A DNA stretch of 64,000 nucleotides from Escherichia coli (GTDB taxonomy: Bacteria > Pseudomonadota > Gammaproteobacteria > Enterobacterales > Enterobacteriaceae). Shown here piece after piece: positions 13,089 through 58,560 of this stretch. Every line of letters starts with the position of its first letter. Position 1 is the stretch's first letter. The DNA lies in the NCBI GenBank assembly GCA_025336725.1, contig GCA_025336725.1_3647.1. One strand, written 5' to 3'. The notes under the pieces were generated by a model. It was not told where the DNA came from. It saw only the letters and a program-made list of their open reading frames with translations, and did not search any database. The translations under genes and the position numbers were made by a program.

Positions 13089-13165
13089 TGGTCTCCACGG
13101 AGTGATTCGAACACTCGACCTCCTGATCCCAAATCAGGCGCTCTACCAAGCTGAGCTACGCGGAG
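13089..13165 (-). tRNA. tRNA-Pro (anticodon TGG)
   Basis: Hand-folded cloverleaf: acceptor CTCCGCG/CGTGGAG, anticodon stem CCTGA/TCAGG with loop TTTGGGA, T-loop TTCGAAT, encoded CCA. Confidence 0.65.
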
Positions 13166-13174
13166 TTTATAATT

Positions 13175-13249
13175 TGGTGGCCCTGGGTGGAATTGAACCA
13201 CCGTCTGGCGATTATGAGTCGCTTGCTTGAACCTTCCAGCTACAGGGCC
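13175..13249 (-). tRNA. tRNA-Met (anticodon CAT; could be Ile-lysidine)
   Basis: Acceptor GGCCCTG/CAGGGCC, anticodon loop CTCATAA, T-loop TTCAATT, encoded CCA. Confidence 0.6.
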
Positions 13250-13250
13250 A

Positions 13251-13326
13251 TGGTGCTGATGGCAGGACTCGAACCTGCAACCTATTGATTACAAATCAAT
13301 TGCACTACCAATTGTGCTACATCAGC
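13251..13326 (-). tRNA. tRNA-Thr (anticodon TGT)
   Basis: Acceptor GCTGATG/CATCAGC, anticodon stem ATTGA/TCAAT with loop TTTGTAA, T-arm GCAGG-TTCGAGT-CCTGC, CCA. Confidence 0.6.
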
Positions 13327-13331
13327 AAAAA

Positions 13332-13430
13332 GGTGCTAGGCGATGGAATCGAACCACCTATGTATTCAACGACTACTTCGTCTATTTTCAGGATTAAAAA
13401 TCCTCGCCCTTGCCAAAGGGCCTACCTAGC
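13332..13430 (-). tRNA. Atypical tRNA-like element (~99 nt), identity unresolved
   Basis: Good acceptor (GCTAGGT/GCCTAGC), D-arm and T-arm (GGTGG-TTCGATT-CCATC); only plausible anticodon hairpin AGGA-TTTTTAA-TCCT (TTT) plus a ~30-nt variable region with its own hairpin. Confidence 0.4.
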
Positions 13431-13528
13431 ATATTATGCGAATCATGCTGCTAGTCGGCGATGACGACTGTAACATTTGTTAATCCGGTTCTGCTTCCGG
13501 AGCTCGCTTAATTTCATGATCCACGATC

Positions 13529-13618
13529 TGGCAGAGAGTAATGGAATCGAACCATCATCGAGGATATCTCAACGGGACGGTTTTCAAGACCGCTTGAGCA
13601 CCATGCTCCCTACTCTCT
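13529..13618 (-). tRNA. tRNA-Ser (anticodon TGA), long variable arm
   Basis: Acceptor AGAGAGT/ACTCTCT, anticodon stem GCGGT/ACCGT with loop CTTGAAA, ~20-nt variable arm, T-loop TTCGATT, CCA. Confidence 0.6.
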
Positions 13619-13730
13619 TTTTATAAACAACACTGATAATGACACTGATTTTCGAACAGTTAGTGACTAGTATAAACGACGATAAACATCAATGTCATTA
13701 TCTATGTTATTTATCACAAATATGTAATTT

Positions 13731-13817
13731 TGGTGGGGAGTGATGGAGTCGAACCACCCGAGTCGCAATGACAATAGATTTACAGTCTACACCGCTACCC
13801 CTACGGTATAACTCCCC
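13731..13817 (-). tRNA. tRNA-Tyr (anticodon GTA), long variable arm
   Basis: Acceptor GGGGAGT/ACTCCCC, anticodon stem GTAGA/TCTAT with loop CTGTAAA, ~15-nt variable arm, T-loop TTCGACT, CCA. Confidence 0.6.
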
Positions 13818-13821
13818 GATT

Positions 13822-13896
13822 TGGCACCCCGTACTGGACTCGAACCAGTGTCAACGGCTTAGAAGGCCGCTGCTTTATCCACTAAGCTAACAGGGC
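13822..13896 (-). tRNA. tRNA-Arg (anticodon TCT)
   Basis: Anticodon stem GCGGC/GCCGT with loop CTTCTAA, T-loop TTCGAGT, CCA; acceptor contains G-U wobbles. Confidence 0.55.
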
Positions 13897-14187: not shown

Positions 14188-14288
14188 CNNNNNNNNNNNN
14201 NNNNNNNNNNNNNNNNNNNNNNNNNNNNNNNNNNNNNNNNNNNNNNNNNNNNNNNNNNNNNNNNNNNNNNNNNNNNNNNNNNNNNNNN
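14188..14288. other. Assembly gap (run of N)
   Basis: About 100 consecutive N characters in the sequence. Confidence 0.95.
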
Positions 14289-14296
14289 AAACAACC

Positions 14297-14539
14297 TCAT
14301 TGTAAAGCACAAATAAATAAAACATACTTAATTTGTTTGTTATCGGGCTCAGGGTAGAAGTAGAAGATCTTGCTATCACCAATCTGAACACCACCATCCC
14401 AACAACATAAACCATAACCCGTATTCATACAAGCTAAGTCGTTGGCAAAATCTATTGCATCATCTAGTGCACGAAATTCACCTTCATCTTCTAAATAATC
14501 CTCATTCATGGAGCGGAAAACGAGCTTAACCTTAAACAT
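14297..14539 (-). CDS. Hypothetical protein (3' end may lie in the gap)
   Basis: 80-aa track ORF abutting the N-run. Confidence 0.3.
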   Translation of the reverse strand: MFKVKLVFRSMNEDYLEDEGEFRALDDAIDFANDLACMNTGYGLCCWDGGVQIGDSKIFYFYPEPDNKQIKYVLFICALQ

Positions 14540-14615
14540 AGCATTACCTGTAGACCTCGTAAGTTAAAATTGCATCACATCATATTGCAGATCTTATCAG
14601 GTAACACTGTTTTTG

Positions 14616-14804
14616 TCAACAGATTCCGGCCTTATCCTTCCTGTCTGCGTACTCTTTAATCGCAATCTCATCTGCATTGAGGGCCAAGCCTTCAAAGTAA
14701 TCCTCAAGCTCCTCGTCAATATCAGGAGACCAGCTCTTTTTCCTGTCAGTGTGAATTGCAGACTTGTTGAACTTATTACAGTTCTTTGCTACCGGATTGT
14801 TCAT
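14616..14804 (-). CDS. Hypothetical protein
   Basis: 62-aa track ORF, same orientation as neighbours. Confidence 0.3.
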   Translation of the reverse strand: MNNPVAKNCNKFNKSAIHTDRKKSWSPDIDEELEDYFEGLALNADEIAIKEYADRKDKAGIC

Positions 14805-14819
14805 TAGCTCTCCTCAGCG

Positions 14820-15392
14820 TTCATAGTAAATTTTATTTAACATTACCTCATTCTTTGCAGAAAGAATACCGAGATATGCATCACCGAACCTACCTGCAAC
14901 AACCTCTGCATGATACATCACTTCGTTAATATCGTCAAGAGTGATAACTGGATGACCGTATCTCTCTGAATATTGTCTTAGAGTGCGATGTAGAGAGTCG
15001 TCATCGTAGGCAGACTTTTTAATATCGCAAACACGACGAATAGCCTTGATGTCGAAAAACCCTGTGCGATACTAACCAAAGGAAAGTGTCTCATCAGTAT
15101 CAACATCTACATCAATACTAGCAAGAACCTTATCTACAAGATAGCTGTCATCCTTTGGACTAGCTTCCTTAGTGCGAATGTAGTTGCCATCTTTCCCTGG
15201 TGACAACTCCTTCTCATCACCAACTCGCATGTCATCGTTTGGCGGTGTTAACCACTTATCTGGATGCTTACGATCACGAGCGTCCGAATGATTGCGCTGG
15301 AAACCTGGCTTCCACTTGAAAGTTTTCCCCATCTGTTCTTCATCCTGATAACGTTTTGCAATCTTTTCTCGGTCATGTTTGCGTGAGCTCAT
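14820..15392 (-). CDS. Hypothetical protein, apparently frameshifted into two segments
   Basis: Track ORF 15072..15392 continues in another frame (YRTGFFDIKAIRRV...KIYYER, no start codon of its own) down to ~14820; shift sits near a TTTTT run. Confidence 0.3.
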
Positions 15393-15499
15393 AGCTGACT
15401 CCTCTTCAGGTTATAGAAAAACTCACTGTATCGCTTTGTAACAAGCTTTTCTATCAATCTGGTGTGATTGCCTTACCTAATGTAGTTCACACAGCTGTA

Positions 15500-15770
15500 G
15501 AGCGATTTAGAGGCCTTCTTGCCAGTTTCCACACATAAACTTTAAACAAACTCGCGCGGGAGACTCTCAACCGACTCCTTACGGCGCTTGCAAGCTTTCG
15601 TCGGCGGTCCACATTAGTGCTCGGCCTTTGGCCTGCGCTATAGCTTCGCTACCACACATGTGAACAGTCATGCATGTATGCACGCCTGTTATTGTGTGCA
15701 CTATGGAGGCCCGGCATCTCGCCCCTCATAGGCGAGTGCCAATGAAGGGCCGACACTATACCAGTAAGTA
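15500..15770. other. GC-rich, ORF-free, hairpin-dense segment (candidate structured RNA/leader)
   Basis: Multiple stems, e.g. GGCCC-GGCA-CTCGCC-loop-GGCGAG-TGCC-GGGCC (15708-15751), GGCC-ttt-GGCC, GCTTGCAAGC; no ORF of 60 aa or more. Confidence 0.3.
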
Positions 15771-15896
15771 ATAAATTTAAAACATAATACTTTAGATCTA
15801 GTATATTCTACATAAGTTAAGTATATGTACTTTAGTACCATAAGTACTAGATCTTTTATTTTTTATTATTTAGTTATTTTAGTTATATTCTTTATG

Positions 15897-15977
15897 TGTC
15901 CGTATCACGGACAGTTAGTGTCCGTATTACGGACAGATGTGTCCGCGTGGCGGACAGTAGTGTCCGTCTCACGGACA
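15897..15977. promoter_or_regulatory. Array of four palindromic operator-like sites TGTCCG-N5-CGGACA
   Basis: Perfect 6-bp inverted arms at ~15897, 15919, 15940, 15961 (21-22 bp phasing), intergenic. Confidence 0.6.
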
Positions 15978-16052
15978 GTTGGTAATCTTTGTGCTGTTGT
16001 GGACATAAAACATACATACCTTTATAATACAAATATTTAAGTTTTTACTGGT

Positions 16053-16403
16053 CTAACCAGTTGTCGACATGTGAATCACTTCTTCTGGTGGTAAAACTTT
16101 AGAAAATGTGCATCTTTTCCCTCTCCCTTGTGTGGAAGTTTCAACTATCCCAGCACACTCTAAAGTTCTAACGCATTCTGCTGCTTTCGTTTTCTTAATC
16201 CCTGTATCAGCTGCAATTTTCCTTGTGCTTGGTGTGAATCGTGAATTTCCTCCAAGCTTATACCAGTTGTGCAGATAGCAGTATACTACCTTGTCATACA
16301 GATCAAGAATAACCACCTCTCCTGTTGTAGTATTCAAAACTTTCGACAGAGAAAGTATCCCAAGCGGGACTTTAAGATAGGGCAGCTTATCCTCATCTTT
16401 CAT
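16053..16403 (-). CDS. Small DNA-binding-like protein (possible winged helix)
   Basis: 116-aa track ORF; segment RKIAADTGIKKTKAAECVRTLECAGIV resembles an HTH; adjacent to the palindrome array. Confidence 0.3.
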   Translation of the reverse strand: MKDEDKLPYLKVPLGILSLSKVLNTTTGEVVILDLYDKVVYCYLHNWYKLGGNSRFTPSTRKIAADTGIKKTKAAECVRTLECAGIVETSTQGRGKRCTFSKVLPPEEVIHMSTTG

Positions 16404-16450
16404 ATCTCCTGATTCTCCTTGTGTGGATATTTTCTTTAATATAGCAGGGA

Positions 16451-17005
16451 TTACTCCCTGCTGTCAATATCAAAACCCATTGCAAGGCCGTATGCCTCTT
16501 CTAGCGGTAACAGTCTCCCCCACACATCCCAACCAACATCCAACTGCCTGCCAAATAACTGTTGTGTGGTTCCGTGAGCATGACCAAACAGTTGAACTGA
16601 TCCGTGGGGCTTTCTGTTCCACGTTGCAAACTGGTAATGGCTCATACAGATCAGATTCTTGTTGTGGCGAAGCTCGTAATAATCTACAACCTCATGACAG
16701 AACTCTTTCATAATTCTGACAGTCGTCCTTGTGTCATGGTTACCACGAACAAGAATAATATGTCCGTTCAGCATATTTAGAATTTCAGGCAGTAAGTTGT
16801 TGATATTCTTATCCTTAGTGCATGCAATGTCTCCCAAGTGGAACACGGTGTCCCATGGTGACACAATTGAGTTCCACTTGTCTATGATCCCTGCATTCAT
16901 GCTATCAAGATCGTGGTTATACTGCGATCTGTGCTTTTGACAAGAATCGAACTCCATAACACGCTGGTGGAGAAAGTGTGTGTCACTTGTTATAAAATAT
17001 TTCAT
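16451..17005 (-). CDS. Calcineurin-like metallophosphoesterase
   Basis: Motifs SDTHF (DxH), GD, LVRGNHD (GNHD), GHAHG (GHxH). Confidence 0.75.
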   Translation of the reverse strand: MKYFITSDTHFLHQRVMEFDSCQKHRSQYNHDLDSMNAGIIDKWNSIVSPWDTVFHLGDIACTKDKNINNLLPEILNMLNGHIILVRGNHDTRTTVRIMKEFCHEVVDYYELRHNKNLICMSHYQFATWNRKPHGSVQLFGHAHGTTQQLFGRQLDVGWDVWGRLLPLEEAYGLAMGFDIDSRE

Positions 17006-17012
17006 ACTATCC

Positions 17013-17423
17013 TCATTTAAGTTTAATACAGTTTTTCAGTTCACGTTCCATACGATCCACAACCCTTTCTGGAACATTGTGGATACTTTTGTTACCGTGG
17101 CGATTCTCCACCACGATTACGGTGTAATTATACCCATTACGGATCGCCATGTCAATATACTCTTGCACATGCTTTTCTTTTGTGAATGTGTTGCTTACCA
17201 CGACACGGTCGTATCCCATACGCATCATATCTTCTATATTATCTTTGCACCATTTTGCAGCAAGTGTGACTTTACTTGCATCCCAGTTGTAATTTCCATC
17301 ATCGTCGTACCAGAACATGTCGTTCTCAAAATGTGGATACAGACCTTCTAAAGATAGCGCATTTGCCAGTGTTGATTTGCCAGACCCTGGTAGACCACGC
17401 ACGATATACAGCATTTTAGACAT
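17013..17423 (-). CDS. P-loop kinase (polynucleotide-kinase-like candidate)
   Basis: Walker A GLPGSGKST right after start; start refined to Met 34 with GGAGGG RBS (track ORF runs to 17522). Confidence 0.45.
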   Translation of the reverse strand: MSKMLYIVRGLPGSGKSTLANALSLEGLYPHFENDMFWYDDDGNYNWDASKVTLAAKWCKDNIEDMMRMGYDRVVVSNTFTKEKHVQEYIDMAIRNGYNYTVIVVENRHGNKSIHNVPERVVDRMERELKNCIKLK

Positions 17424-17502
17424 AGCGACCCTCCGTTTTAATTTTAACGACAGTATACCGTGTTCTTTTGAACATTTCAAGTGTTGACATGATGCTGTTT
17501 GT

Positions 17503-18459
17503 GTGGGAAGATTGTGTAACAAAATGACAAACGAGGAACGTATGATGAAGTATTTTAATGCAGATGATTTAGTGGATAAAGGTCTTGTAACCAGTCGGTA
17601 TTATCCAAATCTCGGATTAAAGATCTACAAATATGCCAGAAAAGTATTCTACAACAATTTATGGCATTTGTCTCCGCGTCTACTGGAGTGCCGAGGCATT
17701 GTTGTCGGTAACGAGGGGAATGTTGTGGCATGGCCCTTCACAAAAGTGTTTAACTTAGGAGAAAACTCCACCAACCTACCTGACAATAAGCTTGTGACGG
17801 CTGTAGAGAAAAAGAACGGGTTCCTTGGCGTGGTATCCTCTCATAAAGGTGAACTATTGTTCTCAACGACTGGGTCTCTTGATTCTCCATATTGTAACCT
17901 TGCAAAGGAAACCATCCAGGAGCAATGTGGCAATTTAGATCTTATCAAGAAGGTTATGGGCCATGAAAACATGACATTTATGTTTGAAATTTGTCACCCT
18001 TCAGACCCGCATATTGTTCATGAGGATCATGGTGCGTATTTGATAGGTTGTAGATACAATGATTCTGGAATAATGCTACCAGAAGCGGCTTTAGACGGTA
18101 TTGCCAAGTATCTTGGTGCAAAACGTCCTCACACTGTGCGTGAAATTCCGTTCAGCTATGCAAAAGAATTAGCTGCAGAAACAAGAGGTGAAGGGTATAT
18201 GATTCGTAAGCCTTACTACCCTTATGATCTGCAGCTGAAGATCAAGTCTCCATACTATTTGGCACGGAAGGCCGTAATGAGGGGTAAAGCTTGGAAGATT
18301 TGGGATGATGATATCTTTAAACGTGTTGACGAAGAGTTTTATGGCATGGTAAACTTCATTCGTAGCAATTACACAGAAGATGTGTGGAACTGCCTCCTGG
18401 AGCAAGAACGTCGTGAGATACTTGACTGCTATTTCCACAACGAGGACTATATGCAATGA
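17503..18459 (+). CDS. ATP-dependent RNA ligase-like nucleotidyltransferase
   Basis: Motif I EKKNGF (KxNG), motif IV GEGYMIRK, motif V LKIKSP; likely start at a downstream Met (17524 or 17542). Confidence 0.55.
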   Translation: MGRLCNKMTNEERMMKYFNADDLVDKGLVTSRYYPNLGLKIYKYARKVFYNNLWHLSPRLLECRGIVVGNEGNVVAWPFTKVFNLGENSTNLPDNKLVTAVEKKNGFLGVVSSHKGELLFSTTGSLDSPYCNLAKETIQEQCGNLDLIKKVMGHENMTFMFEICHPSDPHIVHEDHGAYLIGCRYNDSGIMLPEAALDGIAKYLGAKRPHTVREIPFSYAKELAAETRGEGYMIRKPYYPYDLQLKIKSPYYLARKAVMRGKAWKIWDDDIFKRVDEEFYGMVNFIRSNYTEDVWNCLLEQERREILDCYFHNEDYMQ

Positions 18460-18504
18460 AGAAGTGGAAAGTTCTTTTTAATCATTCCAGCTTAAGGGAG
18501 CTGT

Positions 18505-57927: not shown

Positions 57928-58464
57928 TCAGCCAGAAATATCTCAAGGGGTCCGGTTATGCCACGATTCTGTGCTTGTCCTACAGGAGTGCTGCCCTGTC
58001 AGGAGCCGGTAGCGACTGGAGTGCTGCCAGGCGGACGGAATGGGAATACTTCTCATTCTTATAACGATTCTCAAATATCATGGCAGTGAGGCAAATTAAT
58101 AGGCCAGGCCGTTCACACAGTGGCACAACATTTGCAACCTATCTTGGGTGGGGGAATGAGAATACCTATCATTGTGAGAATAGTTATCATTACGGGCAAT
58201 TTAACATAATACCCATTATGCGCACCACTGGCGATACATACAGGGATTGATAACATGTGACACTGTTTACGCATATAACAATTGCATTTCTTACTATTTG
58301 TGGGGGATATAGTTAGCAGCCAATAGATTAGATATTAACCTGCAGCTATCCAGCCATTTAGACGTCTAAACGCCCACACAACAAGGATTATACATACATT
58401 CCTGAATGTAAACAGGGCCGCAAAAATGCTACCATACCAGATTGTAAATTTTTCATGCAGCACT

Positions 58465-58560
58465 TGACAAAGAGGAGAAAAACTTGTCTGACATGCTGTG
58501 ACATAATGGTGACATACTGGGCATGCTGTGACACAACTGACACGATTGACATAATTGACA
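58465..58560 (+). repeat. Phased array of TGACA(T) motifs
   Basis: Eight TGACA at ~58465, 58489, 58499, 58510, 58529, 58538, 58547, 58556; last four 9 bp apart; GCATGCTGTGACA occurs twice. Confidence 0.5.

Follow-up and report, generated by a model that had tools for sequence, protein, structure and literature searches.

A candidate lambda-plan replication origin beside a winged-helix gene in an rV5-like coliphage

Background

Plasmid iterons, such as those of RepE, pi and RepA, are in most cases direct repeats to which two-domain Rep proteins bind as monomers; as dimers, plasmid Rep proteins bind separate inverted repeats for autorepression. The well-studied large virulent phages T4 and T7 rely on transcript-primed or recombination-dependent initiation and not on iteron origins. 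The origin of phage lambda (ori lambda) lies inside gene O; dimers of the O protein bind its iterons to form the O-some, and unwinding occurs at an AT-rich tract (PMC7466680). The minimal unwinding unit consists of two iterons plus the AT tract, and the number of iterons is four in lambda and six in Stx phages (PMC7466680). In the lambda sequence, the four annotated iterons (TCCCTC-N5-GAGGGA) are located in the middle of gene O with spacings of 20, 24 and 23 bp. They come after the part of O that encodes the DNA-binding domain and are followed by an A-rich tract of ~40 bp and then by an inverted repeat.

We analyzed an intergenic array of four palindromes in a 64-kb stretch of DNA, which is henceforth referred to as the window. 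The window belongs to a Vequintavirus (rV5-like coliphage): 121 phage records, all of this genus, align with its region 14500-18500 at 90-97.5% identity, and the closest record is OX460980.1. We searched the literature for a description of TGTCCG-N5-CGGACA as an iteron motif or of an rV5-like origin and found neither, nor any paper linking the Vequintavirinae with iterons. The repeats are annotated merely as "repeat_region" in some database records.

An array of phased palindromes laid out like ori lambda

A first, sequence-only reading of the window had described four 17-bp TGTCCG-N5-CGGACA sites with a 21-22 bp phasing. We confirmed the exact positions of the four sites, all of which have perfect 6-bp inverted arms. 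Numbered from the neighboring gene, iteron 1 is located at 15961..15977 (TGTCCGTCTCACGGACA, spacer TCTCA), iteron 2 at 15940..15956 (TGTCCGCGTGGCGGACA, spacer CGTGG), iteron 3 at 15919..15935 (TGTCCGTATTACGGACA, spacer TATTA) and iteron 4, which abuts an AT-rich tract, at 15897..15913 (TGTCCGTATCACGGACA, spacer TATCA). Measured from start to start, and beginning with iteron 4, the spacing is 22, 21 and 21 bp. A fifth site is absent from the 64-kb window even when two mismatches are allowed. Shuffled sequences contain on average 1.1 sites at ≤2 mismatches, so that four perfect and phased copies are far above chance. The half-site TGTCCG is found 8 times in the window (10.6 expected), and all but a handful of these occurrences are within the array. 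The sequence-only reading had also suggested a search for the motif over the rest of the genome. The array sites are unique, both in the window and in the complete rV5 genome (137,947 bp), where the only sites at ≤1 mismatch are the homologous four at 65,152-65,232 and where the half-site hexamer is not enriched away from the array.

The array is intergenic, as the sequence-only reading had stated. It is located in a 660-bp region (15393-16052) and starts 76 bp beyond the stop codon of the gene for a 116-aa winged-helix protein (16053..16403, - strand), the homologue of rV5 ORF79 and the proposed initiator. Two ORFs cross the array (15825-16040 on the + strand and 15892-16032 on the - strand). 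They are by-products of the repeats: relatives of this phage differ by the loss of units of 21 or 43 bp, and the latter length is not divisible by three. Together with the 22/21/21 register, the 43-bp deletion rules out a coding role of the array in Vequintavirus.

In the direction of the gene (- strand), the stop codon is followed by 76 nt, the four iterons, a 42-bp AT-rich tract, an inverted repeat and a GC-richer segment. The AT-rich tract (15855..15896) is 90% A+T and A-rich on the gene strand, and is proposed as the DNA-unwinding element. It is the least stable 40-bp duplex in the window (rank 1 of 63,960). In rV5, the least stable 40-, 60- and 100-bp stretches of the genome are all at 65,020-65,150, directly abutting the array. 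The inverted repeat (AGATCTAGTA / TACTAGATCT, 15794-15803 / 15843-15852) has 10-bp arms that are 39 bp apart; folded as DNA, it is not significant (z = -1.73). The AT-rich stretch with its own inverted repeat, which had been claimed to lie beside the array, is thus present in both its parts. The claim of a GC-rich, hairpin-dense segment holds for base composition: segment 15530-15760 has a GC content of 0.54 versus 0.43 and contains several local hairpins, but the RNA fold of 15500-15770 is not significantly better than that of shuffled sequence (z = -1.75). The rV5 annotation places the 56-aa ORF78 in this segment, where up to three tiny ORFs are annotated in BASEL phages. An Rfam scan of 14400-17600 returned a sole match, to rli43, with 25 bits against a threshold of 100 bits, and no family was accepted.

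We compared this layout with that of ori lambda. Both comprise four 17-bp sites with 6-N5-6 dyad symmetry, spaced by 21/21/22 bp in the window and 20/24/23 bp in lambda. In both, the array is followed in the direction of the initiator gene by an A-rich tract (42 bp here, ~40 bp in lambda) and then by an inverted repeat, which in the window has the position of the palindrome after lambda's AT-rich tract. The iterons are 3' of the winged-helix coding part of the cognate protein (here putative), transcription passes through the origin (predicted for the window) and the copy number varies among relatives. Unlike in ori lambda, the arms are TGTCCG instead of TCCCTC, the candidate origin lies 76 bp past a stop codon instead of inside the gene, and the 116-aa protein has no counterpart of the C-terminal, P-binding domain of lambda O. 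The phages differ as well: whereas lambda is temperate and borrows the host DnaB, the phage analyzed here is a virulent myovirus of 137 kb that encodes a polymerase and a primase-helicase of its own. In contrast to iteron-type plasmid origins, every site in the window is palindromic and the protein is single-domain.

The genes around the array are all on the - strand, and the direction of transcription switches at ~17,500. Upstream of the winged-helix gene are a metallophosphoesterase gene (16451-17005, - strand) and a gene for an AAA_33 / polynucleotide-kinase-like ATPase (17013-17522, - strand). The other side of the intergenic region is bounded by the homologue of rV5 ORF77 (listed ORF of 106 aa, 15072-15392, - strand), followed by a cluster of six tRNA genes.

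We made four further observations on this neighborhood and its database relatives. The full rV5 ORF77 homologue (phrog_12226, 192 aa) spans 14817-15392 (- strand), and the listed ORF is shortened by an in-frame TGG to TAG change at ~15072. The frame beyond the TAG is still 89% identical at the protein level, and the TAG is a nonsense mutation, a suppressible amber codon or a sequencing error. Positions 14189-14288, in the small-gene region downstream of the array, are exactly 100 N (a masked stretch or an assembly gap). The AAA_33 polynucleotide-kinase-like ATPase, the metallophosphoesterase and an RnlA-like RNA ligase form an RNA-repair-style gene set (16451-18459 and 13089-13896) that adjoins the six-tRNA cluster (Pro, Met, Thr, Ser, Tyr, Arg), which suggests a counter-measure against host anticodon nucleases. 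Finally, 18 MG0656xx records named "Campylobacter phage" (UNVERIFIED) are ~91% identical to this phage group over a 4-kb query, and their host labels look doubtful.

Conservation of the array within rV5-like phages

We compared eight genomes with an overall identity of ~91% (the window, nom, ECML-10, rV5, JohannBauhin, V18, A147 and navn). The array has four copies in five of the eight genomes (the window, nom, ECML-10, rV5 and JohannBauhin), three copies in V18 and A147 and two copies in navn. Copies have been lost as whole units, through deletions of 21 or 43 bp, and at least two copies are always kept beside the AT tract. This range of two to four copies matches the known tolerance of lambda, for which two iterons plus the AT tract suffice. 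All four copies are perfect in the window. In nom, ECML-10, rV5 and JohannBauhin, the second copy from the AT-rich side (iteron 3 of the window) has a degenerate right arm, CGGGCA. This copy apart, the arms are invariant among relatives, in contrast to the spacers. The two flanks of the array differ as well: all eight genomes share an identical 60-bp sequence on the AT-rich side, and the flank on the gene side is variable.

A possibly related arrangement is found in a sister genus. The Salmonella phage PVP-SE1 (L077, 2140-2480) has ATTCCC-N4/5-GGGAAT palindromes, 24 bp apart, in a strand-switch intergenic region that also contains AT-rich DNA and AGATCT-containing palindromes and is rearranged relative to the window. 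The palindromes adjoin gene 99, whose 118-aa product has a sub-threshold match to HTH_36 and aligns with the window protein at an hhalign E-value of 0.009. The palindromes and gene 99 may represent an analogous cassette of different specificity, although the palindromes are placed 5' of the gene.

The 116-aa winged-helix protein

The sequence-only reading had proposed that 16053..16403 is a small HTH-like gene, and its product was identified as a winged-helix protein by Pfam and by an AlphaFold model. The Pfam match to HTH_36 (PF13730) is marginal (25.1 bits for a cut-off of 25) and that to DUF6945 is just under the threshold; PF13730 is also the precomputed assignment of clusters homologous to this protein. 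The AF2 model (pLDDT 72.8) consists of a winged helix with an N-terminal beta-hairpin and short tails, and no C-terminal domain is present in it. In structure comparisons, CRP, LexA and MarR regulators scored like DnaD-N and plasmid Rep. The fold is thus a generic winged helix that does not separate initiators from regulators. PDB 4ro3, the DUF6945-like N-terminal domain of an uncharacterized Vibrio cholerae protein, gives no functional information.

In the PHROGs database, the protein belongs to phrog_12838 "replication initiation protein" (1e-71), a label based on remote homology. Weak matches were obtained with the initiator or O-like families phrog_8102, 428, 270 and 678 (E 0.0037 for phrog_678). 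A BLASTP comparison with lambda O was not significant (E 1.2), and no match to Pfam Phage_rep_O was detected. At the level of sequence, the protein is not a strict member of the lambda O family, and it is known as O-like by the weak PHROG matches only.

We searched for relatives of the protein in several datasets. In 50,697 phage records, relatives were found only in rV5-like phages, and none was found in IMG/VR. Among 5.8 billion proteins we recovered five near-identical clusters, and among 1.84 billion representatives two plausible remote matches (P0008 and P0009). Judged by these searches, the family is nearly confined to rV5-like phages, and its relatives are too few for a deep alignment. 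Nevertheless, an hhalign comparison of the family with the N-terminal domains of the array-associated initiators described below gave 90.9% (E 1.2e-6), which indicates, by profile comparison, that the protein is homologous to these domains.

The same motif in other viral contigs

The sequence-only reading had further suggested a motif search in related phages. In addition to the copies in rV5-like relatives, arrays were found in 22 unrelated viral contigs, which were returned by a scan of IMG/VR that required two adjacent motif copies and used no protein information. All 22 contigs have phased arrays of 2-7 copies at 20-25 bp, and in all 22 the array is immediately 3' of a winged-helix coding segment on the same strand. 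With a home-made winged-helix profile, which is partly circular since many of the 22 loci are its seeds, the domain reads toward the array in 19 of 22 contigs and no significant case reads away from it. The remaining three contigs have winged-helix-like N-termini by Pfam or by eye. The earlier proposal of phased sites for dimers of the adjacent HTH protein is thus supported as to the association of array and winged helix across the 22 contigs, from which we infer binding and oligomerization.

The array is usually placed inside an ORF of 244-419 aa, between the segments for the winged helix and for a C-terminal domain. Nine of the 22 contigs are different (L008, L010, L011, L018, L021, L022, L024, L025 and L029; ~7.5-34 kb, henceforth L008-type): here it is in the tail of a 133-aa winged-helix protein. 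In these contigs, a conserved ORF of ~165 aa follows the cassette, and the large terminase gene is found 1.6 kb on, followed by the portal gene. The ~165-aa protein has no match in PHROGs and might be a detached C-terminal initiator domain. Contig L016 shares the layout of the window: a stand-alone gene for a 120-aa protein ends 2 nt before the array, and an A-rich tract and a GC-rich hairpin come after the array. A BLASTP comparison of the two proteins is insignificant (E 0.88). The O-like and DnaD-like initiators with internal iterons (PHROGs 270, 345, 391, 678 and 186; contigs L008-L029) resemble the window in motif, phasing and position. They differ in that most of their arrays are inside an ORF with a C-terminal domain, the stand-alone-gene layout being found only in L016.

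The functional labels of the array-associated proteins point to replication. Their PHROG matches are labelled replication initiation, O-like, DnaD-like helicase loader or primosomal, with phrog_270 in 8 of 12, and the only other labelled match is a weak one to a generic "HTH DNA binding protein". No transcriptional regulator family and no small terminase family was detected in this search. Cultured phages have annotated O-like/DUF1376 initiators that are homologous to the C-terminal domain of the L013 protein, and in one of these phages, the Marinomonas phage P12026, the initiator gene is followed by P-like and DnaB genes. The L017-type cassette precedes RusA, an arrangement also seen in lambdoid replication regions. 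The A/T- or purine-rich side of the array is distal to the winged helix in most independent lineages. The cultured phages LASTA, MED4-184 and P12026, which have related initiators, carry other phased repeats at the same position in the gene. Thus, the layout is general, and TGTCCG-N5-CGGACA represents one specificity class within it.

The motif occurs in phages of E. coli, Actinoplanes, Treponema, Kiritimatiellae and a Parachlamydiaceae MAG, and in many uncultured viruses. Pairs of TGTCCG-N5-CGGACA palindromes, 20 bp apart, were also found 3' of activator genes in Burkholderiales MAGs (L035, L038, L040, L058 and L066). The products of these genes end in a Fis-type HTH typical of sigma54 activators, and the pairs are probably enhancer-binding sites unrelated to phage origins. 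As other protein families also use the palindrome, the motif alone is not diagnostic and the argument rests on context. A host sigma54-activator site was set aside as a reading of the array, as nothing ties it to the E. coli phage.

Alternative readings of the array

The headline of the sequence-only reading was a bank of operator-like sites. In the corresponding alternative, the array would be a transcriptional control element through which the winged-helix protein represses or activates genes. We consider this reading unlikely, although it is the strongest of the alternatives. The bank could act as a roadblock to early-gene read-through into ORF78-74, the tRNAs and the lysis and structural genes, which are on the same strand. 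It could also control a promoter in the AT-rich tract, where PhagePromoter predicts one in phage Gotham, or an antisense promoter-like site at 16000-16028. The authors of the rV5 genome annotated the protein as a putative transcriptional regulator, many regulators are among the closest solved folds, and the array is at a boundary between gene groups.

A strong sigma70-like promoter, TTGACA-18-TATATT (with TG), is located upstream of the winged-helix gene (16438..16467, - strand) and is the counterpart of P76 in the rV5 annotation. Because the array is 3' of the gene, it cannot serve autoregulation of this promoter. No terminator-like site was detected between the gene and the array, so that transcripts from this promoter would pass through the array. 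A scan for sigma70-like promoters detected none on the - strand inside or beside the array. On the + strand, the near-consensus sigma70-like site TGGACA-17-TATAAT (16000-16028) is 23 bp from the array and antisense into the 3' end of the winged-helix gene, but it faces away from the array, and relatives have a weaker version of it (CGAACA / TATAGT). This site could be a source of antisense RNA or fortuitous. Moreover, since the array sites are unique in the genome, they define no regulon. The operator reading gives no reason for the extreme and invariant AT tract. The arrays of other phages are inside initiator ORFs and beside replication genes, and an operator role is therefore implausible in these phages. 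For these reasons, we regard the operator reading as weaker than the reading as a replication origin.

It is very unlikely that the array acts at the RNA level, where the 3' UTR of the winged-helix gene would contain four 6-bp hairpins in tandem as signals for processing, stability or protein binding. In favor of this reading, a 6-bp stem closed by a 5-nt loop can form in each unit, the loops vary while the stems are constant, and the region is probably transcribed, there being no terminator before the array. However, the degenerate CGGGCA copy is uncompensated, no Rfam family matches, and the arrays of other phages are translated within ORFs. The arms are sequence-invariant across very distant phages and never covary, which argues for base-specific recognition of duplex DNA rather than for pairing.

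Lambda gpNu1 binds the R sites of cosB. A comparable packaging role, with the winged-helix protein as the small terminase and the array as a pac/cos-type binding site, was considered and has a still lower probability. In its favor, no small terminase has been identified beside TerL in rV5, where the two upstream genes encode Rz-like spanins. The cassette has the same orientation as TerL and precedes it by 4.3 kb in rV5 and by 1.6 kb in the nine L008-type contigs; the latter proximity counts against the origin reading. However, none of the winged-helix proteins has a match to a terminase family. The genome ends of vequintaviruses are fixed and carry direct terminal repeats of 458-459 bp (PMC7471380, PMC6563267). 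In phage Gotham, the terminal repeat is at 1-459 and 136,567-137,025, and the array at 96,860-96,940. The homologue of this 459-bp repeat in the window is at 58,030-58,488 (93.7% identity), 42 kb from the array. As the virion ends map this far away, a packaging site was rejected for this phage group. In rV5, the Gotham repeat is found at 104,973-105,431, in a ~2.6-kb unannotated gap between convergent gene blocks.

Plasmid centromeres are typically phased repeats bound by a small dimeric protein. A partition site had also been suggested by the sequence-only reading. This reading, in which a small adaptor protein would bind the array as a centromere-like site, is the least probable of all and hardly credible here, as the neighbors are a phosphoesterase, an AAA_33 polynucleotide-kinase-like ATPase and small uncharacterized proteins with no ParA/ParM-type NTPase among them, the phage is virulent with a linear and terminally repetitive genome (PMC7471380), and the array-associated proteins of other phages are initiator-like.

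A proposed iteron-type replication origin as the best explanation

We consider it probable, though by a modest measure, that the array represents the iterons of a replication origin on the lambda plan, served by a minimal initiator that consists of a winged helix only. The sequence-only reading had noted that iterons and an AT-rich element would fit a replication origin. Among the readings considered, this one fits best, given the ori-lambda-like order of elements, the AT tract and the initiator-associated arrays elsewhere. It builds on the anatomy of the locus, its uniqueness, its conservation and the tie across phages between the motif and initiator-type winged-helix genes. From these we infer binding, oligomerization, unwinding, helicase entry and the start of replication at the array.

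In the proposed mechanism, dimers of the 116-aa winged-helix protein would bind the four 17-bp palindromes. The spacing of two helical turns would place the dimers on the same side of the duplex, where they would assemble into a wrapped nucleoprotein complex comparable to the lambda O-some, and strain from this complex would open the adjacent 42-bp tract. The phage primase-helicase (rV5 ORF230) and the T7-like DNA polymerase (ORF228) would then begin synthesis. Transcription from the promoter before the winged-helix gene would cross the origin and may aid its opening, as at ori lambda. The step of helicase entry is unaccounted for in this scheme because the 116-aa protein lacks the domain by which lambda O recruits the helicase loader.

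Although the global minimum of the cumulative GC skew of rV5 is at ~66 kb, ~1 kb from the array, this is weak evidence for an origin because GC skew here follows the direction of transcription. The authors of the rV5 genome described a skew change at 66,675-66,725 and linked it with the switch in the direction of transcription, leaving the origin undefined (PMC3606486). The sequence-only reading had also held that repeats inside a real protein-coding gene in related genomes would speak against a functional array. The repeats are intergenic in rV5-like genomes and inside initiator ORFs in other phages. We do not regard the latter position as a refutation, because ori lambda is itself inside gene O (PMC7466680).

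A broader version of the origin reading is that TGTCCG-N5-CGGACA is an ancient shared iteron "code", which may be read by extremely divergent winged-helix initiators, and that the initiator of rV5-like phages and of L016 is a bare DNA-binding domain. We put this forward tentatively and think it more doubtful than the origin itself. If it is true, a bare domain opens the origin for a T7-like replisome without an O-C-terminal or P-type module, and initiator-dependent origin firing in a large virulent phage is minimal.

Implications

rV5-like phages are common in therapeutic and biocontrol collections, and their origin has so far been undefined. A candidate origin of ~200 bp with a candidate initiator makes the question testable and would help phage engineering, for example through origin-bearing plasmids and conditional replication mutants. 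If the origin reading is true, a large virulent myovirus with its own T7-like replisome has a lambda-type initiator-and-iteron origin, which raises the question of how the helicase is loaded. The occurrence of the same 12-bp recognition sequence beside very divergent initiators would also provide a system for studying how initiator specificity is conserved or exchanged.
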